Below, in pieces: positions 4,531 to 64,000 of a stretch of 64,000 bases of DNA (position 1 is the stretch's first letter; each line of letters starts with the position of its first letter). A program made the position numbers and the translations under genes. The notes below the pieces were generated by a model. The model was not told where the DNA came from. It made no database searches and was given only the letters and a program-made list of their open reading frames with translations. This DNA comes from Escherichia phage vB_EcoM_01. The stretch lies in the sequence record PP129558; one strand, 5' to 3'.

Positions 4531-7500
4531 ATGGCAACATTCCCAACATATCCAGCAACGTCTCTTGAACAGGGCGTAGATCTGGTTATTTTCTCGTCTA
4601 ACCAACTCCATGATGTTATTAATGGAAGTGCTACAGAGAGTATTGAAACAGAATCAGGGTTGATACCAACCCTGAGAAAAGCCCTTGTTGACAACTTTTT
4701 CTTTAAAAGTCCATTAGATTGGGCGCAAGGCACAAACGAAACAGTTTTTAACCAACTTCGTTATTTCCAGAACGGAGTGTTGAGTGGTTATTACTATGCG
4801 CCTAATGCTACGCTGGTAAACCCAATTCCTATGCAAGGGACTCCAGTAGGAGATAACAACTGGGTATTGTGGGGACTGAAGACAGAACAACTAGCAACAG
4901 AAGTCACCCCTTGGGTATATTCTGGTGCAACTGGTTATGAAACAGTAATCAGTCCTCCCTACATCTTTGATAGTGCTATTGTTACAATCAATGGTGTTAT
5001 TCAGGTTCTGGGAGAAGCTTTCCGCATAGAAGATAGTAAAATCATTTTATCTGAACCTTTGGGACATGATCCTGCAACAGGACTGCCAAACAAGCTTTTT
5101 GCCTATATTGGTAAAATCGTAGCTTCCGCAGATACAGATCCTAACTTAGAAAACCGTCTTGTCAGTTTAGAAACAAAAACTGAAGAACTGACAGAAAGCA
5201 TGGATAAAGTACCTTTACAAACTATTGCTCGTAAATACGGTTTGTTGGATGATGAAGTAGCTTACGCAACAGCGGGTCAATCATTAACAGGGATTAAAGC
5301 TCTGTATGATCCGGTAGCACAATCTTCCTACACATTGCCTCCTAACATCACAGGGACTTTAACATCTTTGTCTGTTTCTGGAGTAATGACTTATTCTGGC
5401 GGATCTGTAGACCTTTCTGCATTAGCTGTTGAACGTGGACAGTTTGTTCATTTGCCTACAAGCTTTGGTAATAACGTAACTCTGACAGCTAAAAATCAGA
5501 CGATTGGGCGTGGCGCTGGTCGCTATCGTTGGGCGGGGAGTTTACCAAAAAGTATTTTAGCTTCTGATACATTGGAAACAAGTGGTGGATTAGGTCCAAA
5601 TGCATGGGTTCTAACTAATACAGAAGGACTGTTAACCCCTCGTGGTGGAACATACAACGATTTATTCGATGTTGTCTACTTGTCAGAATTTGCTAACAAT
5701 ACAACTACCTATGCCACACCAGAAGCAGCTTTCCAGGCGGCACTGTTAGCAGCAAAAGCTTCGAAAAGTAAGATTCTCGACGCTTACGGTTGTGATATGA
5801 CTTTCACGACAAGCTCTTTTGATATTCAAGATATCACTTTGCGTGGGGGTGTGTTCCGTGGTCAACGCGACTATCGTGTGCAAAATGCTACAGTAGAAGG
5901 CACAACTTTCCGTAACTCTCGTGTTATGTATTGGGGTGGTGCTGTGCGCATGTTCGATTGTTTGTGGGACGGTGCTCCTCGCGCAGGTCAAGTTGGTAGC
6001 TTGGTATTCCAAGGCAACCCAATATCAGGTACTTTTGAAATTGATAATTGTACTTTTAAAAATGGGTTATATGGCATCCTTCAACAAGGAACAGGGGAAC
6101 CAGTAACACGTGGTGTCTTCCGTAACCTTACCTTCATGGACATGCAAGGTGATGCAATAGAACTGAACGTCATCAATAAACATTATGACGATGGTTGTGT
6201 GATTGAGAATATTTACCTGTCTAATATCGATGGGACTAACGCTCCTATTCCTCTGTCCAACTGGGGTATCGGTATCGGTGTAGCTGGTAAAGGACCATAT
6301 GGTTACGGAATCCCTGATGATCAATATTGCAAGAATATTACAATTCGTAACGTTTTTGCAAAACGTTGTCGTCAGATTGTCCACGTAGAAGTTGGTCGTA
6401 ATATCTCTATCGAAAACATTCATGGCGATCCAGATCAAACCGTATCTGTTGGGACAGGTTTGGCAACAGGCGCAGTTGTAATGTATGGAAGTAAAGATTT
6501 TACGATTGACGGTGTTTACGGAGAGCCTAAAACAGACGGTAGCACACTTGCAAGTAATATCCGTATGATTTATTTGGAGTGGGGAACTAACGCAGTTCTG
6601 GACGAAGAGGGTAATCCGGTAGTTCCGGCACAGGGTAGACCTTCAAACCCATGCTTTAACTATTCTGTTCGTAACATTCACACCAAAACTGGGCGTGTTT
6701 TTGCGGGAGTTTCCGCTGGGCCAGGTTATGAAAACAGAGTTAGCTTTGAAAATATTCGTTGCGCTGCATTGCAGTTGTTCGGTATAGCTTCTTGGCTTTC
6801 AATGTCTAACATCACCTGTAATATCTTCGATTGTGTTGGTCAACCTGAATCTGGTCCAGGGACATTTTATGATGGATTCTTCCGTAGAGAAAAATCTGTT
6901 CTTGAAATGGTTAACGTAAACTGTTACCCAGATGGCAAGACGATGGTTACTGGTCGTCCACAGTGGAGCCGTTGCCGTTACTCGGATATTCATCGTGTCA
7001 ACTGTAATGTTGAAGCTAATATGTATACCAATATCGCAGGTGGTATTGGAGCTATTGTAGGGACAACGGGCAAAGTTTATTACTTAGAGCCTAATCCTAG
7101 TCGAAACATTGATGGAATGCATTTCCCAACAGGGAAAGAGTTTGACAAAGGTGATATGATAGTCAAGGCGGATAATACGTTCTTCCTTGTAACAACAAGT
7201 GGGGCATATATTCCAGATATCCCAGCTTTCGGTATTCGAGCTACACAAGCAGGAGATACCTTCCTGACACAGAACTTGACTCCTAACGGGACAGCAACAA
7301 ATGCTTCTTGGTTGTATCATTACCCTCTGTCAGCAGGGACACGTATCCGTATTCCTGGTGCTGGCGTAGGTGGAGCAGATTTGGACACAGTTATTACTCG
7401 TGCACCTTATCAAGATAATGATACGTGGACTAACCCAGTTAAAATAGACATTGCAGATCCAATTGTAACGCCTACAAGTGCTGGAGTTAGAATTAAAACC

Positions 7501-53146: not shown

Positions 53147-53505
53147 TTGACGTTCAAATTATGCGCAACGAAAGAATGGACTTCTTTGAAGCAGTAGAGA
53201 AACATCTGATCAGATGGGACTATGAATTTGTTCCTGCTGGATGTGGACCAGTAGAGCATTTAGCGGAAGACGATGATGTATACATGATCATTCGTCAAGT
53301 GTACCAGACAGACCAGTGTGAAGAAACTCCCGAACTGATTTTGTTTGAGTGTAAAGATCTTGCAAAATATTTTGACTATGGCGGAAAAGAGGGTCATAAT
53401 CTCTCCAGATACAATAAACGTCTACTTATCTTAGACTACATGCGGAACAACAAACACAAACTCATCGACGCAGACGCAGTTTATGGCTACTGGTGGATGG
53501 ACTAA
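53140..53505 (+). CDS. hypothetical protein
   Basis: 121 aa ORF. Confidence 0.5.
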   Translation: MLVDVQIMRNERMDFFEAVEKHLIRWDYEFVPAGCGPVEHLAEDDDVYMIIRQVYQTDQCEETPELILFECKDLAKYFDYGGKEGHNLSRYNKRLLILDYMRNNKHKLIDADAVYGYWWMD

Positions 53506-53518
53506 CAAAGGAGAAACT

Positions 53519-53698
53519 ATGGCACGTTTAGCAGACCATGAAATCTTTAAACCTATTCTGAACCACTATGATGAACTTAAAGCAGTGTTGGATTGTTATA
53601 GAGAGGATGAAGAACGTTTGGAAGTCAATCTTAAGATAGTTCTGATGAAAGCTTTTCAAGACGGGCAAGCTAAAGTTTTAGAAGGCATGAAAAAATGA
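53519..53698 (+). CDS. hypothetical small protein
   Basis: Start at ATG 53519 with AAGGAGAAA RBS (track ORF begins 53483). Confidence 0.45.
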   Translation: MARLADHEIFKPILNHYDELKAVLDCYREDEERLEVNLKIVLMKAFQDGQAKVLEGMKK

Positions 53699-54237
53699 GA
53701 ATAACTGACGAATATGTATTCTTCTTTTCACATAAAGATGTGTTTAGTAATTGGTATATTGCACCCTTTACAGAAACTGAACCAGGTTACAATGAGACTT
53801 TCTGTTGTGTTGAGCAATATATGATGTGGCGTAAGGCTTTGCTGTTCAAGGATCATGCGATTGCAGCAGCTATCCTTGATCACTCGACTATACGTGACAA
53901 CGAGAGAAAACAAGCATACTACAAACGTATGGGTCGAGCGGTATCTGGTTTTAATAATGATATGTGGGAAGAGAACCGTGAGCGTATTGTTATGCGAGGT
54001 TTATGCTTGAAATATGTACAGAATCCAGATTTGTATGCAGACTTACACCTTTACCAATACAAAACGTTTGTTGAAGCAAGTCCTTACGATAAGGTTTACG
54101 GTATTGGAATGGGAATGTATGAACCAGGGGTGCTAAACCCTGCCACCTGGAAAGGGCAAAATCTTTTAGGTAAATATCATAACAAACTGATCGAAATACT
54201 TTTCCCAGACAAAATACCGCAAAGACGATATTTGTGA
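53695..54237 (+). CDS. NADAR-domain protein (YbiA-like)
   Basis: 180 aa; FFFSHKDVFSNW, EQYMMWRKA, RMGRAVSGF...MWEENRERIVMRGL..KYVQNPDL, EASPYDKVYGIG align block-for-block with E. coli YbiA. Confidence 0.75.
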   Translation: MRITDEYVFFFSHKDVFSNWYIAPFTETEPGYNETFCCVEQYMMWRKALLFKDHAIAAAILDHSTIRDNERKQAYYKRMGRAVSGFNNDMWEENRERIVMRGLCLKYVQNPDLYADLHLYQYKTFVEASPYDKVYGIGMGMYEPGVLNPATWKGQNLLGKYHNKLIEILFPDKIPQRRYL

Positions 54238-54478
54238 TATTTTAACTTTTTTCATTTTTAGAACAAAGGCGTCACTTTGTAGCACAGAAATAAGGCTCCT
54301 ACAGCACCGTAGAGAGCCTGTTATTTTGTCCTATACAAACCCTTGTCTTTTTCAGTTTGCATCACTAGGACTCGATCTGAGTGGGTTCCTGAAGGTCTGC
54401 CAATAAGATTAAAGGTTATCTCAAATTCCCATTACCTATTATCTCAAAAATCCCTCAAATTATTTAAACTTTTTAAGA

Positions 54479-54666
54479 ATTTACAAAAGTGAAAGTTGAA
54501 AACCAAAATTTAAAGTTTAGGAAAATTATCTTAAAATGTCAGATACAAAACAAAACTCAAAAGTCAAGGAAAATTTTAAAAATTTTGCGCGCCCACAGTA
54601 TTTAAAGTTTTTTTGCTTTTACAAAAATGAAAGTACAAAAGCAAAATTTAAAGTTTACAAAAATTT
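54479..54666. repeat. pair of ~45 bp direct repeats (about 88 percent identical) plus recurring tttaaagttt
   Basis: copy 1 at 54479-54526, copy 2 at 54617-54666. Confidence 0.6.
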
Positions 54667-54705
54667 ATGCAGATGGGAATGAGAAGAGTTCTCATATGGA
54701 AATGC

Positions 54706-54784
54706 AAATGATAATGATTCGCATTTAGGTTTATAAATGAGATTGATTCTTATTTGATAAGGTAAATGATAATCATTCTCATTT
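54706..54784. promoter_or_regulatory. two Fur-box-like motifs
   Basis: aaaTGATAATGATTCGCATTt (54706-54726) and aaaTGATAATCATTCTCATTt (54764-54784); resemble Fur box GATAATGATAATCATTATC. Confidence 0.4.
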
Positions 54785-55010
54785 AGAGAATGACGCGCAG
54801 GGGCGGTGTTTGTCTCGCGCTCCCGTGTCCCCTCGCCATGTAATAAGAATAACAGATCCAGCCAGGAAAGCAAGCGATTATTTTATCTTTACATTTCTTT
54901 ACAAATATATAGCGCCCAGCCTACCGGCGATCAACCTTCCAACCAGCGCCCTGGTATGTTAGCCCCGCCTTTACGCCGTGGGGTGGCGCTTCCTCTCCTG
55001 TATGTAAAAC

Positions 55011-55039
55011 AGTATAAGCCCGATCCCTGGGCTTGTCAA
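55011..55039 (-). promoter_or_regulatory. near-consensus sigma70 promoter on minus strand within GC-rich island
   Basis: TTGACA (rc 55034-55039), 17 nt, TATACT (rc 55011-55016). Confidence 0.45.
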
Positions 55040-55041
55040 GA

Positions 55042-55308
55042 TTATTTTTTGTTTTCTTGCCAGGATAGGACACCTAACCAAAAATGCATATCGCCCCGCG
55101 CCCCTGGCGGGATCTTGCTTTCCCCGCCGCCACTGCAAGCCCATAAATAACCATCAGCGAACGGATCAAAATGTTCTATCTCTTCCACTTTATGATCGCC
55201 CAGGTTGAGAACTGTTTCAACCTTTAAGCCCGTTGCGCTTGCTACCTGGTGCACCGTGCCGCCTTGCCAGCCCAATGAGTGCATAAGGTGTAATGTAGTA
55301 TTTGTCAT
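55042..55308 (-). CDS. hypothetical protein (GC-rich island)
   Basis: 88 aa ORF with non-repetitive composition; weak RBS. Confidence 0.3.
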   Translation of the reverse strand: MTNTTLHLMHSLGWQGGTVHQVASATGLKVETVLNLGDHKVEEIEHFDPFADGYLWACSGGGESKIPPGARGDMHFWLGVLSWQENKK

Positions 55309-55495
55309 GGTATCGCCCTTTCTTTGTTGTGCGCCCAGGTTGGCGCGGTAGAAAGATGATAGCCGTTTCCTTCATATATAGCAAGCAAAAAGAAAATAAA
55401 AAAGATTGAAAAAGTGGTTGACGTTCCTCACCTGGTAGCNNNNTANTCNACCGTCCACCAACAAAAAACATCATTCATCACCTGGAGTTAAAATC

Positions 55496-55693
55496 ATGGC
55501 AACATTGCACATTGTGGCGAAAGCAGGACAAATCAGCGTCGTGGTAAACGGTTTTACTGAGTTCAGTCATCCCCAGGATGATCATGAAACGGTTTTATCT
55601 TTCATTGATTCCCTGTTAGAAATGGGAGTCATTACAGAAGACCAGCACGCTACAAAATGCAAGCGCGTTAATCAAATTGCAGGAATAGAATAA
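55496..55693 (+). CDS. hypothetical small protein
   Basis: 65 aa; GGAG RBS. Confidence 0.5.
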   Translation: MATLHIVAKAGQISVVVNGFTEFSHPQDDHETVLSFIDSLLEMGVITEDQHATKCKRVNQIAGIE

Positions 55694-55699
55694 AAAGTA

Positions 55700-55758
55700 T
55701 TGACAACAAACAACAACCTGATAAGATGTATCACATAGGGCGGGAAGTGGTTTCCCGC
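55700..55758 (+). promoter_or_regulatory. promoter plus 5' hairpin module
   Basis: TTGACA-16-TG-a-TAAGAT-gtatcacatag-GGCGGGAA gtggt TTCCCGC. Confidence 0.6.
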
Positions 55759-55783
55759 TCGTAACAGAAGAGAGATTATCATC

Positions 55784-56056
55784 ATGGCATCATATAGCGC
55801 AACAATGATCGTAGCTGGCACCACTGGTAAACCTATGTGCGGTGGCGGATCTTTCGCTAATATCAATATTGACGGGCGTTTATCCCTGGACGCAGCGATC
55901 ACCGTGGCGCGGGAAACATTTAAGAAAGAATGTAAATTCAATAAACAAGATTATCTCGGTTTCGCTATTGAAAAAACCGCGCGCTTTGTTGATTATAAAA
56001 GCCCGAAAATGGTTGATACTACACTAAAAGCGCAAGATGTAGCGTTTTTGCTTTAA
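55784..56056 (+). CDS. hypothetical small protein (array gene)
   Basis: 90 aa; AGAGAGATTATC RBS; preceded by module. Confidence 0.6.
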   Translation: MASYSATMIVAGTTGKPMCGGGSFANINIDGRLSLDAAITVARETFKKECKFNKQDYLGFAIEKTARFVDYKSPKMVDTTLKAQDVAFLL

Positions 56057-56059
56057 GGC

Positions 56060-56114
56060 TTGACATTAACGAATAATTTGTTTATATGTTACATAAAGCG
56101 GGAATAGTTCCCGC
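56060..56114 (+). promoter_or_regulatory. promoter plus 5' hairpin module
   Basis: TTGACA-17-TATATG...GCGGGAA tag TTCCCGC. Confidence 0.55.
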
Positions 56115-56132
56115 TATTTGTAAGGTGGTAGA

Positions 56133-56390
56133 ATGTTTTACATCAAATTAAAAGGTCACGTGATCGCGTTCAAAGATAACGCTTTTTACAGATTAGCAAA
56201 ATATGCGTTAATACATCCCCACTATGTTTATATAAGGGGGCGTGATGAAATAAATATCTTTGATCAAACAACATGCGAGAACATCGAGATCCGCAAGGTT
56301 GGCGTACGTGATTATCGTACATCTTTCTACCCTTGCAAGGATTCAGCAAGTCTTTTTAAAGTATGCCGATTGTTGAAAAAAGGTGGTTAA
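56133..56390 (+). CDS. hypothetical small protein (array gene)
   Basis: 85 aa; AAGGTGG RBS. Confidence 0.55.
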   Translation: MFYIKLKGHVIAFKDNAFYRLAKYALIHPHYVYIRGRDEINIFDQTTCENIEIRKVGVRDYRTSFYPCKDSASLFKVCRLLKKGG

Positions 56391-56949
56391 TATGGGCCGC
56401 GAATATGTGATCCAGTCTTGGGTAAAACATGAAGCAGATGATCCGCGCATCATTCCTGATTATCTTGTCGATGAATCCACGGGCTATAGCGGGGAGCAAA
56501 TAGGTAACAGATCAGCACGTAGTAACGGCAACGTAAAAGCGCGTTATGTGCGCCCTGGCTGGCTGGCAAATGGTAACGCTGATTTATCCAGTGCGGAAGA
56601 TGCGAGCGACGGCGCGAAAGATAATCCTTTGTACAAAATTGATCCGGCTTTTCGTGTCCTGGATGAATACCCCAGCAAGATAGCGGCGCTCGATCAAGCC
56701 CTGGAAAGTAAGCGCATCACCTGGACCGCTTACAACATGGCAAAAAACGTACTTGATGGTAAATTGATTCAAGCTGAAAGAAAATTAGCCAAAATTGCAG
56801 CCATAGCCCAGGAGGAAGACGAGGAGACAACGGAAGAGGAAGAGTACGAAGAGATCCCGCCGTTGTTGTGTGTTGATGCTTTTCCTGATTATCAGCCGAC
56901 AGAGGAAGAAAAAAGGATCGCGCTAGAAAACTTTGAAAATAGTCTTTGA
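56383..56949 (+). CDS. hypothetical protein with highly acidic C-terminal region
   Basis: 188 aa; EEDEETTEEEEYEE tract. Confidence 0.55.
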   Translation: MVNMGREYVIQSWVKHEADDPRIIPDYLVDESTGYSGEQIGNRSARSNGNVKARYVRPGWLANGNADLSSAEDASDGAKDNPLYKIDPAFRVLDEYPSKIAALDQALESKRITWTAYNMAKNVLDGKLIQAERKLAKIAAIAQEEDEETTEEEEYEEIPPLLCVDAFPDYQPTEEEKRIALENFENSL

Positions 56950-57003
56950 CATATCGCCGCCACTGGCATAATATTTACCACGTAGGGCGGCAATGGTGCC
57001 GCT
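56946..57003 (+). promoter_or_regulatory. promoter plus 5' hairpin module
   Basis: TTGACA (overlapping upstream stop)-17-TAATAT-ttaccacgtag-GGCGGCA atgg TGCCGCC. Confidence 0.55.
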
Positions 57004-60963: not shown

Positions 60964-60972
60964 AAATAAATA

Positions 60973-61002
60973 AACAGGACTTGTTTTTGTCCTGTTTTTT
61001 GT
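60973..61002 (+). terminator. rho-independent terminator at end of array
   Basis: aacaggac-ttgttttt-gtcctgtt hairpin followed by TTTTTTGTT. Confidence 0.7.
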
Positions 61003-61139
61003 TATACTTATTGAACGGGCGGCACCTGGGAGCAGGCGAAGATAATCACCGGAAGATCCCGCTATATATCGATAGCTAATACCTATCAAACAACAAAACA
61101 TCAAAGAGATAAACTATCAAATCTTTACAATCCTACCTA

Positions 61140-61168
61140 TTGACCGATAAATCACAACAGTTTAATAT
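61140..61168 (+). promoter_or_regulatory. sigma70-like promoter (no hairpin)
   Basis: TTGACC-17-TAATAT upstream of 61217 start. Confidence 0.4.
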
Positions 61169-61216: not shown

Positions 61217-62456
61217 ATGAAAGAAGTTATGATCCTCAAAAAATCACCTATTTTACGTGGTGGCTTTATCGCTTACTCTGATGATCTGTTAATTGCAACA
61301 GTTGCAAAAATACTAAAATCAGAAGATGACAGTAAANNNNNNNNNNNNNNNNNNNNNNNNNNNNNNNNNNNNNNNNNNNNNNNNNNNNNNNNNNNNNNNN
61401 NNNNNNNNNNNNNNNNNNNNNNNNNNNNNNNNNNNNNNNNNNNNNNNNNNNNNNNNNNNNNNNNNNNNNNNNNNNNNNNNNNNNNNNNNNNNNNNNNNNN
61501 NNNNNNNNNNNNNNNNNNNNNNNNNNNNNNNNNNNNNNNNNNNNNNNNNNNNNNNNNNNNNNNNNNNNNNNNNNNNNNNNNNNNNNNNNNNNNNNNNNNN
61601 NNNNNNNNNNNNNNNNNNNNNNNNNNNNNNNNNNNNNNNNNNNNNNNNNNNNNNNNNNNNNNNNNNNNNNNNNNNNNNNNNNNNNNNNNNNNNNNNNNNN
61701 NNNNNNNNNNNNNNNNNNNNNNNNNNNNNNNNNNNNNNNNNNNNNNNNNNNNNNNNNNNNNNNNNNNNNNNNNNNNNNNNNNNNNNNNNNNNNNNNNNNN
61801 NNNNNNNNNNNNNNNNNNNNNNNNNNNNNNNNNNNNNNNNNNNNNNNNNNNNNNNNNNNNNNNNNNNNNNNNNNNNNNNNNNNNNNNNNNNNNNNNNNNN
61901 NNNNNNNNNNNNNNNNNNNNNNNNNNNNNNNNNNNNNNNNNNNNNNNNNNNNNNNNNNNNNNNNNNNNNNNNNNNNNNNNNNNNNNNNNNNNNNNNNNNN
62001 NNNNNNNNNNNNNNNNNNNNNNNNNNNNNNNNNNNNNNNNNNNNNNNNNNNNNNNNNNNNNNNNNNNNNNNNNNNNNNNNNNNNNNNNNNNNNNNNNNNN
62101 NNNNNNNNNNNNNNNNNNNNNNNNNNNNNNNNNNNNNNNNNNNNNNNNNNNNNNNNNNNNNNNNNNNNNNNNNNNNNNNNNNNNNNNNNNNNNNNNNNNN
62201 NNNNNNNNNNNNNNNNNNNNNNNNNNNNNNNNNNNNNNNNNNNNNNNNNNNNNNNNNNNNNNNNNNNNNNNNNNNNNNNNNNNGGAAAATTGAATATCGC
62301 GAGATGATCGACGATGAAACGGGGCAGGATTTTAGCGAGTACGTTTATATTCGTTCCGAGACATTAGCCGAACGTTTGATCGAGAAAATGAAAGCAAAAA
62401 ATAAAATTAATTTATCTCATTGGATTGATATAACAAACGATCCAGCTTATCAGTAA
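61217..62456 (+). CDS. coding region interrupted by large gap (one or more genes)
   Basis: N-terminal 40 aa with RBS before gap; C-terminal 57 aa after gap ending at 62456 followed by terminator; 61337-62283 is N. Confidence 0.35.
61337..62283. other. scaffold gap (N-run)
   Basis: 947 n. Confidence 0.95.
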
Positions 62457-62471
62457 ATAACATTTCATACC

Positions 62472-62499
62472 AGGGCGCACAAAGCGCCCTTTCTTTTTG
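62472..62499 (+). terminator. rho-independent terminator
   Basis: agggcgc-acaaa-gcgccct hairpin followed by TTCTTTTTG. Confidence 0.65.
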
Positions 62500-62559
62500 C
62501 CCGAACAATGTTGATAGCTTTCGCCTATGAAAAACCGACACAGAACAAAACTGAATAAA

Positions 62560-63000
62560 TCGCGGTATCGAGCTAATCAACCATTAAACGAATAACCATA
62601 CCTCCCAGGGCAACAGGCTGTTAGAGAGCCATTTATAGCGGTTAAAATCGATCAACAACCAACAACAAACCATCAAAAACACCCTTTTACCTCCTTTCTA
62701 GTGCAATGATAACCATTATCATCTACCCATGATTATCTATGCAATATAAGCGCATAACTATAATGTTGATAATAGTTCGCAACAACTAACTAACCAACAA
62801 CCTAAAACAACAAGCAAACTAATCATAATCAAAGGAATAATAGCAAGATGATTGATAACGACAAACAATAAAACCATGATGAATACTAAGCAAGATAACG
62901 ATAACACGACAAAACAACCAACTAACGAACAATAACAAACGAAACCATTAAAATAATAACTATTAGCAAAATAGTGCCTGAATGAAATCATTACAAAACG
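62560..63000. repeat. strand-asymmetric A+C-rich low-complexity non-coding tract
   Basis: Plus strand dominated by caacaa/aacaa/ataac units, depleted in G and T; no credible ORF. Confidence 0.6.
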
Positions 63001-63023
63001 AATCATTCACAGAGTCATCATTA

Positions 63024-63240
63024 GCACGCTATGCCGGACACATAGCGAGCTAATAATAAGCCAACTACACCCCAACAATCATAACCATCGGTGATGGTTA
63101 TTTCTTGTTACTGCGTAGCTTGCAATAATTGCAAGCGTAATGACGCTTACACTTATTGCGCTGGCTTATTATTAGCATTATATGTAATTACCAAGATCAT
63201 AACATTAGCGCAATAACAATAATCATTGTGGTAATTACAT
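63024..63240. repeat. dense cluster of palindromes and inverted repeats
   Basis: cgctatg/catagcg (63026-63047); 14 bp arms 63049-63062 and 63163-63176; ataaccatcGgtgatggttat (63081-63101); gcttgcaatAattgcaagc (63118-63136); aagcgtaatgacgctt (63133-63148); atgtaattacc/ggtaattacat (63182-63192, 63230-63240). Confidence 0.7.
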
Positions 63241-63448
63241 AAGGAAATAATTAGCAAGATGAATAATTGCACGTAGCAACATGAGCGAATAGCGACAGNN
63301 NNCATAGTGTNNAAACATACAGGAAAATAAAGGCTAATCTTTTGGGGCGAATACTATCGCGTAGCGATATGTTGAGCAAGTTCTCTTAAACGTAAATAAA
63401 ATCAGAAAATTCTTGATTTGTTTTGGTTTTTATGTTAATAAACGTTTA

Positions 63449-63647
63449 AATAATAATCATTCTCATATAAATAATAGTCGGCTTGTCATGAGCGGGATTA
63501 GTTGACAATGTTCCGTCATATGATGAAGTTGCCAAGCCATTGATAAATAAGTGTTTGTGTGATTTATAATCAGGTGGCCCACCTTGTCGCTATGTTGGCA
63601 TGAGCCTTGCATAAGTCATTGAATACGAATGATAATTATTCTCATTC
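63449..63647. promoter_or_regulatory. two further Fur-box-like motifs
   Basis: aATAATAATCATTCTCATa (63449-63469) and aATGATAATTATTCTCATT (63627-63647); same core as 54706-54784. Confidence 0.35.
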
Positions 63648-63714
63648 GCATGATATTTGGGAATTGTCGCTGCGTGGACCTGACGGCCCGAAAATTCGCG
63701 TTAAGCACTTCTTA

Positions 63715-64000
<286 letters not shown>

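Follow-up and report, generated by a model that had tools for sequence, protein, structure and literature searches.

What does an island of DNA unusually rich in guanine and cytosine (GC) encode in a phage genome when no convincing gene appears to fill it? The question is raised by a segment at about 54800-55480 in a 64,000-nucleotide (nt) stretch of Escherichia phage vB_EcoM_01 (sequence record PP129558), referred to here as the window. The segment lies between a NADAR gene on its left (53695-54237; Pfam E 3e-35) and, on its right, an array in which every small early gene has a promoter of host type. The original prediction described it as richer in GC than the rest of the window and without a convincing open reading frame (ORF), and suggested that it may encode a small RNA or be a horizontally acquired segment. 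The best reading of the present analysis is that the left part of the island encodes a previously undescribed structured RNA of the phage, a non-coding RNA or a leader, that has promoters of host type; a search of the published literature found no description of this element. The right half is a conserved protein gene, here called p88.

The window belongs to a phAPEC8-like myovirus of Phapecoctavirus (Stephanstirmvirinae), and 143 phage records match 54700-55500 by megablast, mostly at 90-99% identity. The compositional contrast holds: the three GC-richest 500-nt windows of the 64 kb start at 54801-54901, with values of 0.498-0.506 against a mean of 0.392 and a standard deviation (SD) of 0.029, or about +4 SD. 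GC content is 0.52 for 54790-55041 and 0.49 for 55042-55308, while the adjoining 54400-54789 has 0.25. Furthermore, GC skew at the locus is -0.16 to -0.22; the plus strand is C-rich, and a minus-strand transcript would therefore be G-rich.

A conserved non-coding segment and its promoter

A sensitive blastn search with 54300-55500 returned 350 phage records. Outside close relatives only 54736-55008 aligns, at 70-76% identity, in Mydovirus, Certrevirus and Seunavirus and in Serratia, Pantoea, Enterobacter and Pectobacterium phages; these homologues are usually unannotated and always lie within a large intergenic gap. The rV5-like Vequintavirus phages align over 54765-54883 only and T5-like phages over 54700-54790 only. 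Scanning IMG/VR, JGI metagenomes and GTDB genomes by pattern brought in 33 more loci. Across Stephanstirmvirinae and Vequintavirinae, the approximately 250 nt downstream of a minus-strand promoter, P1, are the best-conserved DNA of the neighbourhood, and the first part of this sequence, T1 (about 130 nt, 54874-55004, minus strand), is 70-100% conserved across genera. Alignment indels downstream of P1 measure 1, 5, 6 and 10 nt. Such lengths, which in T1 are not multiples of three, rule out coding, and the sequence downstream of P1 is non-coding.

P1 is a sigma-70 promoter of the form TTGACA-17-TATACT at 55011-55039 on the minus strand, exactly where the original prediction had placed it. With 11 of 12 matches it is the best promoter-like site in 54000-56500, and each of the 34 distinct homologous loci retains its hexamers with 9-12 of 12 matches, the -35 element varying among TTGACA, TTGCAA and TTGACG and the -10 element among TATACT, TATATT, CATAAT and TATAAT. 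The 17-18-nt spacer takes at least 12 unrelated GC-rich forms, mostly hairpins. Judged by this comparison, P1 is a real promoter with a predicted transcript start. In the window, its spacer (55016-55034) forms the hairpin AAGCCC-AGGGATC-GGGCTT, which starts 7 nt past the p88 stop codon, and a terminator scan flags 55034-55016 (6-bp stem, tail ATACTGTTTT, U tract interrupted or weak). Because of this position and the scan result, the hairpin is probably a terminator for p88 that overlaps the promoter. As had been claimed, no ORF with a start codon follows P1 on the minus strand; the only minus-strand ORFs around it (54921-55073 and 54971-55144) begin upstream of P1. Small ORFs within the transcribed part, namely an 18-codon ATG ORF in the T2 leader discussed below and a 50-amino-acid (aa) ORF over T1, were rejected, as neither start codon nor frame is conserved.

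T1 most likely folds as an H-type pseudoknot (54963-54988, minus strand) and then a long hairpin whose tip varies (54939-54962, minus strand), a prediction with moderate support. In the pseudoknot, stem S1 is CGCC/GGCG and the loop CCCC pairs with GGGG as S2. A structure of T1 and T2 assembled by hand had 89% pairing, where slid controls had 27-50%, and contained one clean covarying pair (GC14/AU10). The first set of T1 sequences had been gathered by a motif inside T1, which makes the invariance of its core partly circular. A second set was obtained by scanning IMG/VR with an independent anchor, CTNCCGGCGATNNACCTT, and keeping true homologues by an nhmmer profile; it yielded nine new loci with variant cores. 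The variant cores retain the S1 hairpin CGCC-loop-GGCG, S1 being 97.6% paired overall, and the loop CCCC with its partner GGGG becomes CCAA with UUGG or CCAG with CUGG. At the level of single pairs, S2 pair 23/38 is CG16:AU5 with zero unpaired, pair 24/37 is AU3/CG1/GC1, and the lone C-to-U loop change at pair 21/40 yields U.G; at the base of the hairpin, pair 46/68 is AU13:GC8, also with zero unpaired. The hairpin tip varies wholly in sequence and length (CCAG/CUGG, CCC/GGG, GC/GC or GCC/GGC). Over the second set, 87% of cells are paired against 14-46% with a slid partner, and the covariation score of T1 is 0.184, whereas slid partners reach no more than 0.063 and shuffles 0.080+/-0.015. The stem potential noted downstream of the promoter is thus backed by covariation in the minus-strand RNA.

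The same data bear on strand. In some lineages the tip loop of the hairpin is GAAA or UUCG, which are stable tetraloops in the minus sense only, and G.U pairs likewise fit the minus sense only. The functional strand is, for these reasons, most likely the one read from P1. Window folding gave z -2.55 for the minus sense and -0.53 for the plus sense; thermodynamic stability was nevertheless dropped as evidence for structure, given that lineages were inconsistent.

The original prediction had pointed to Rfam, where no family was found: a scan of 53500-57000 against Rfam 15 gave no match at E<=10 within 54787-55480, and four relatives gave none at E<=1. A tRNA/tmRNA scan of the whole window was also empty, and nhmmer profiles found no second T1 in the window, where T1 is therefore unique. 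Several candidate roles were tried and rejected. Anti-Shine-Dalgarno pairing of GGAAGGUGGAUC failed on two varying central positions; an RcsB box had a spacing off by one; and a CRISPR-repeat mimic found no CRISPR-DR match in Rfam. The hairpin tip CATACCAGGGCGC (54946-54958, minus sense) is repeated exactly in a plus-strand terminator hairpin at 62466-62478 and is the only 13-mer common to the locus and the rest of the window; as an antisense target, this terminator 13-mer was dismissed as probably due to chance.

Two observations concern the distribution of T1. One Mydovirus-like IMG/VR contig (L019) has two T1 copies (6269-6372 and 7030-7125) about 750 bp apart, the second with an unrelated left flank, and this pair is a local duplication or recombination. 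Additionally, four contigs of 116-139 kb, probably rV5-like (L044, L061, L076 and L085), have just the 3' third of T1 (GATCGAAGGTTGATCGCCGGTAGCACG...). The rV5-like phages may hold a T1 remnant or a divergent form that the profile does not recognise.

The T2 leader, its inverted copy and the palindromes

Downstream of T1 on the minus strand lies a second promoter, P2 (TTGCTT-16-TATTCT, 54846-54873), followed by the T2 leader of about 55 nt (54787-54839, minus strand). P2 falls below the threshold of the consensus scan in this phage. It reads TTGCAA-17-TATATT (9/12) in other genera and scores 6-9 of 12 over the loci, with GCTTG and TA...T invariant and the spacer variable. Just upstream of its -35 element, a GTAAA-N5-GTAAA direct repeat (54888-54902, minus strand) occupies columns that are nearly invariant across genera. 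Its sequence, GTAAAGAAATGTAAA, is the only exact match to this pattern in the window, although one occurrence against 0.3 expected is not significant alone. The repeat resembles an UP element or an activator site and may be a binding site; its form fits a CpxR-type direct repeat. Upstream of early promoters on the plus strand, the motif is met again in reverse as ATCTTTACAAT, for instance at 61127-61137.

T2 is closed by a helix of 5' AUGGCG with CGUCAU 3' and contains an inner hairpin with the conserved loop GAGACAAACACC. Helix pair 188/234 varies as GC9/AU6/GU2, and at pair 189/233, 17 of 24 sequences have G.U, a pairing that only a minus-sense RNA allows. The rV5-like phages, in which no T1 was recognised, have two T2-like units in tandem, a palindrome accompanying each, and their unit retains the closing helix by compensatory change (AAUAAC/GUUAUU). 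A terminator scan also flags 54794-54772, with a 9-bp AU-rich stem, the tail TATCATTTAC and an interrupted or weak U tract.

P2 is homologous to the promoter of a second, inverted P2-T2 unit at 60972-61075 on the plus strand, where a terminator hairpin (60972-60997) overlaps the promoter, as in P1; the -35 element TTGTTT is at 60981-60986 and the -10 element TATACT at 61003-61008. An nhmmer profile of the T2 unit matches 60991-61065 on the plus strand at E 0.006, and five other lineages give E values between 1e-7 and 2e-4. Wherever a lineage has enough sequence, the second unit is present, inverted and 6-10 kb from the first. Second units share a terminator hairpin over a GCTTGyTT -35 element and a -10 element TATTCT or TATACT, followed by leaders of the form AGCGG...CCGG-loop-CCGG...CCCGCUAU and, in most lineages, the palindrome AATGAGAATTACTCTCAA; the leader in the window reads ..CACCUGGGAGCAGGCGAAGAUAAUCACCGG..CCCGCUAU. 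Between the two copies lies the array of small early genes. The left copy is directed away from the array, and the genes to its left are all on the other strand, which leaves this copy nothing to express; on the right, another promoter (61140-61168) intervenes between the copy in the window and the next gene.

Immediately beyond T2, four palindromes of 19-21 bp (AATGAGAATnATTCTCATT; 54678-54785, no strand) start at 54678, 54707, 54736 and 54765, an exact 29-bp period, and the window holds 6 such sites against 0.14 expected. The last palindrome (54765-54785) is nearly invariant across genera. Set against the Fur consensus GATAATGATAATCATTATC as given in PMC4506495, it agrees at 16 of 19 positions, and with the 7-1-7 form it agrees at 14 of 15: 54767-54781 reads TGATAATCATTCTCA, with one mismatch to that form, and 6 sites at <=2 mismatches occur against 0.71 expected. 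Some relatives carry a perfect TGATAATGATTATCA. Because two unrelated coliphage groups share the site and no common binding protein was noticed in them, a host protein would be the economical explanation for what binds it, and Fur, on the consensus match only, is the best candidate. A plus-strand RyhB-like RNA from a Fur-box promoter was considered and rejected, given that its -10 element is not conserved (CAGAAT, CTGAAT or CGGAAT), its plus-sense fold has z -0.53 and its helices would contain A.C mismatches.

To the left of the palindromes lies an AT-rich repeat block (54456-54665, no strand; 0.25 GC) with two 72-nt direct repeats 138 bp apart and sub-repeats, which the blastn extent shows to be conserved in close relatives only. 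Two further palindrome copies and one TGATAACCATTATCA are found in a second long non-coding region at 62.5-63.7 kb. This region (62460-63717, about 1.2 kb) follows the terminator at 62466-62495 and contains short repeats (ATTAGCA and AACAAC runs), promoter-like sites and Fur-like palindromes at 62707, 63449 and 63628; in ETEC-TG it is annotated with tiny minus-strand ORFs only. Together with the left locus it frames the early-gene array, like the repeat regions around the T5 pre-early genes.

p88 and other parts of the window

The right half of the island tells a different story from the one first proposed, which saw no convincing ORF here and called the 88-aa minus-strand ORF plausible but unsupported. 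Its plausibility stands, and support has been found: 55042-55308 encodes a conserved protein, the very outcome named at the time as counting against the proposal. The p88 gene has an RBS-like (ribosome-binding-site-like) GAAAGGG 6 nt upstream of its ATG. A putative promoter, TTGCTA-17-TATCAT (55356-55384, minus strand; 9/12 in the consensus scan), is positioned from the sequence and adjoins, in divergent orientation, a plus-strand promoter of the gene at 55496. The protein matches PHROG 19316 (phrog_19316) end to end at E 6e-59 and, more weakly, a 143-aa family, which proved to be the phiTE homologue with its start assigned to a GTG further upstream. Among 5.8 billion proteins searched, there were 21 homologues of 86-93 aa, down to 45% identity, in which the N-terminal LHLMHSLGWQGGTVHQVASATGL is nearly invariant and the C-terminal half variable. 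Pairwise ratios of non-synonymous to synonymous substitution rates (dN/dS) are 0.09-0.30. The AlphaFold2 model is all-alpha with five helices, at a predicted local distance difference test score (pLDDT) of 94 and a predicted template modelling score (pTM) of 0.87. Given length-conserved homologues, purifying selection and a foldable predicted product, p88 is a real, conserved gene. A fold search with the model gave no significant match, and neither a Pfam domain nor a fold match of the helix-turn-helix type was found. In Phapecoctavirus, Serratia phage Kashira, phiTE and several metagenomic lineages, homologues are found at this position too, read in the same direction and with their 3' end next to P1; Mydovirus, CR3 and PVP-SE1 have none.

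The plus-strand ORF at 54806-55150 was rightly suspected to be spurious. It has no Pfam or PHROG match, its frame is interrupted by indels in relatives, and it is annotated in the phAPEC8 record only. Annotation pipelines should drop this ORF and retain p88.

In annotated relatives, both flanks of the locus consist of small plus-strand "hypothetical" genes, and the unit of P1, P2 and palindromes marks the border between two plus-strand gene blocks, facing incoming transcription. Other features of the window concern assembly and annotation. It is rich in N positions, for example nnnntantcn at 55440-55449. At this spot, DE16, ZCKP1 and other closest relatives carry about 86 extra bases (3729-3857 in L001) with an annotated 42-aa minus-strand ORF, and phAPEC8 is collinear with the window but differs from it in the last 60 nt; the sequence here, which separates the diverging promoters of p88 and the early genes, is variable. 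Two ORFs in 61217-62456, of 358 and 376 aa, are artefacts of a run of 947 N (61337-62283), where relatives have 3-4 small genes (L043, 3888-5142). Positions 63770-64000 are not phage sequence: Nextera adapter read-through (CTGTCTCTTATACACATCTGACGCTGCCGACGA...GTGTAGATCTCGGTGGTCGCCGTATCATT) is followed by poly-A and then about 150 G, an assembly artefact that marks the contig end. Furthermore, records labelled as Campylobacter, Acinetobacter, Pseudomonas or Klebsiella phages (e.g., B15, C3, ABPW7, PsgM04F and ZCKP1) are 92-98% identical over the locus; the hosts given for them seem doubtful, or these are phages carried along from E. coli.

Candidate explanations and known systems

The explanation that we favour, with a probability of about one half, is that the locus produces an early structured non-coding RNA, made by host polymerase and acting via its pseudoknot, and that a protein-bound palindrome array sets its 3' end or read-through. 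Host sigma-70 polymerase would begin at P1 (about 55004) and more weakly at P2 (about 54839) early in infection. The product would be a G-rich non-coding RNA comprising the pseudoknot and long hairpin of the approximately 130-nt T1, to which P2 would add the approximately 55-nt T2 leader closed by its long-range helix, and the RNA would run on into the four Fur-operator-like palindromes. The T1 pseudoknot would be the working part, and about 30 nt of its core barely change across genera whose neighbour genes no longer align as DNA. If the RNA acts in trans, its partner would more likely be a conserved host macromolecule, protein or RNA, than a phage one. A dimeric protein that binds DNA at the palindromes, for which host Fur is the leading candidate, would then set the 3' end of the RNA or the extent of read-through. 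A more ambitious version would make T1 and T2 a new family of phage small RNAs made within minutes of infection, coupled to a Fur-operator array, with sites in common with T5-like phages, that serves as an iron-sensing or Fur-titrating switch with decoy operators and a pseudoknot that targets a conserved host factor; by such a switch the phage would sense or alter the iron status of its host. This version is speculative and decidedly doubtful.

Several results weigh against the favoured explanation. For 24 sequences, a first test by RNAalifold returned just -16 kcal/mol and a covariation term of -0.39; one helix of this fold, GGCGG/UCGCC, was rejected, being lost in variant cores. For the 240-nt region, the minus-strand z score is near 0 in five of ten lineages (L004, L009, L011, L023 and L040), and the plus strand scores better in L005 and L016. 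Covarying pairs are few, and the sequences are phylogenetically related. The terminator scan found no canonical Rho-independent terminator after T1 or T2, which makes the RNA ends tentative, and no antisense target of the RNA was found in the window. P2 has just 7 of 12 matches in this phage. Finally, the Fur assignment consists of a consensus match alone, and the palindromes lie about 55 nt downstream of the start, an unusual position for Fur.

Other explanations account for parts of the same evidence. A replication origin or transcription-activated DNA site, in which a G-rich transcript would form an R-loop or primer running into iteron-like palindromes and the AT-rich repeats would act as an unwinding element, fits the 0.25-GC repeat block, the four palindromes spaced at 29 bp, the two to three tandem promoters aimed at them, the predicted G-rich transcript and the lack of a downstream ORF. 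We regard it as unlikely, as it leaves the compensatory changes, G.U pairs and stable tetraloops of the transcribed part unexplained, no DnaA boxes (TTWTNCACA) were found within 8 kb and no IHF sites at the locus, and the AT-rich block is conserved in close relatives only. Moreover, T5 carries the same palindromes in its terminal-repeat region, yet its origins are near the genome centre (10.1101/866236), and skew analysis of rV5 gave no origin signal beyond changes in transcription direction (PMC3606486). The covariation also bears on a purely cis-acting control region, which we hold to be similarly unlikely. Here a regulated promoter or operator and an insulator would sit at the left edge of the early array, convergent transcription and a bound protein would halt read-through from the upstream plus-strand operon, conservation would reflect protein-binding DNA and the RNA would be functionless. 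The location of the unit exactly between two plus-strand gene blocks, the inverted copy on the other side of the array, the terminator hairpins within the promoters and the resemblance of palindromes and GTAAA repeats to operator or activator sites all agree with this view. However, DNA sites predict neither covariation 15-25 nt apart, nor G.U pairs in the minus sense only, nor GNRA or UNCG tips of variable length, and for one operator a nearly invariant core of about 30 nt would be long.

The proximity of T1 and T2 to conserved early promoters, within a few nt of which they start, is also what a processive antitermination leader like HK022 put would show: its RNA would bind the transcribing polymerase and read through terminators and roadblocks. 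T2-like leaders at two divergent promoters flanking the early region recall putL and putR, and the downstream hairpins and palindromes would be the obstacles. This possibility appears improbable, considering that the left unit has no downstream genes to express, that no sequence or Rfam similarity to described antitermination RNAs exists and that T1, with its predicted pseudoknot and hairpin, does not consist of two simple stem-loops. Least probable, and only marginally credible, is a GC-rich segment of bacterial origin, horizontally acquired and without a function of its own, for which nothing but the compositional contrast speaks. A blastn comparison with 5,426 complete E. coli genomes gave no match to the island, and a motif scan of 185,579 species genomes gave a single "bacterial" match on a 4-kb contig of a metagenome-assembled genome, which also carries p88 and is therefore phage DNA. 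Since the segment is syntenic in two phage subfamilies and absent from the E. coli genomes, the island is old and phage-specific rather than recently acquired. Of the two possibilities raised in the original prediction, a small RNA remains a plausible reading and acquisition is not supported.

The locus is the most conserved DNA of an early region that is mostly unannotated in the rV5 and phAPEC8 groups, which are widely used candidates for therapy and biocontrol, and public records leave it blank or fill it with spurious ORFs; the rV5 genome paper marks a "non-coding" box without comment (PMC3606486). If the RNA is real, a widely distributed structured RNA would join a very short list from virulent phages, and its pseudoknot is defined well enough for mutation and pull-down. 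If the palindromes bind Fur, early transcription of a lytic phage would be tied to host iron status, and the unexplained palindromes of the T5 terminal repeat would gain a testable hypothesis.

Known systems offer partial likenesses. The locus shares four regular palindromic repeats, an AT-rich tract and inbound transcription with the lambda iteron origins and the promoter-dependent origins of T7 and T4; it differs in that no initiator gene was identified here, no DnaA boxes are present and an origin does not need covariation at the RNA level. Like Fur operators and ryhB, it combines 7-1-7 palindromes, the best copy matching the Fur consensus as closely as noted above, with an adjoining non-coding RNA gene, here predicted. 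However, the boxes extend from about +55 onward instead of covering the promoter, and the RNA has no RyhB similarity, Hfq-type terminator or Rfam match. By analogy with HK022 putL/putR and lambda nutL/nutR, a structured RNA would follow directly after early promoters, with related elements at two divergent promoters. The put RNAs are cis-acting antitermination RNAs at early promoters and consist of two simple stem-loops; the present locus differs from put and nut in its left unit without downstream genes, in the lack of sequence similarity and in its fold.

Untranslated Repeat Region 3 of the T5 left terminal repeat likewise contains several copies of the palindrome AAATGAGAATCATTCTCATTT beside small early genes, and differs in having paired DnaA boxes, a LexA-like box and GTGCAAATCCGACA repeats and no P1, T1, P2 or T2. 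In Escherichia phage HASG4 (L022, 2040-2560), AAATGAGAATCATTCTCATTT and longer variants lie near two TGTGGATAA DnaA boxes and a perfect LexA-type CTGTATATTTATACAG. Repeat Region 3 is a candidate injection-stop region, and the comparative study that describes it makes no mention of Fur (10.1101/866236). The comparison closest to home is pseudo-ToxI of phage phiTE (PMC3475682), which belongs to the same rV5-like group and also carries the present locus, at 39.5 kb. Both elements are short non-coding RNAs, predicted in the case of T1, with a host-type promoter in an intergenic gap and a pseudoknot fold. Identity with a type III antitoxin or pseudo-ToxI was rejected, as no tandem repeat of about 36 nt and no ToxI match at <=9 substitutions were found in the window or in any of the loci, phiTE included. 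Pseudo-ToxI is located at 106.7 kb in phiTE, 67 kb from this locus, and T1 is single-copy and far more widely conserved.

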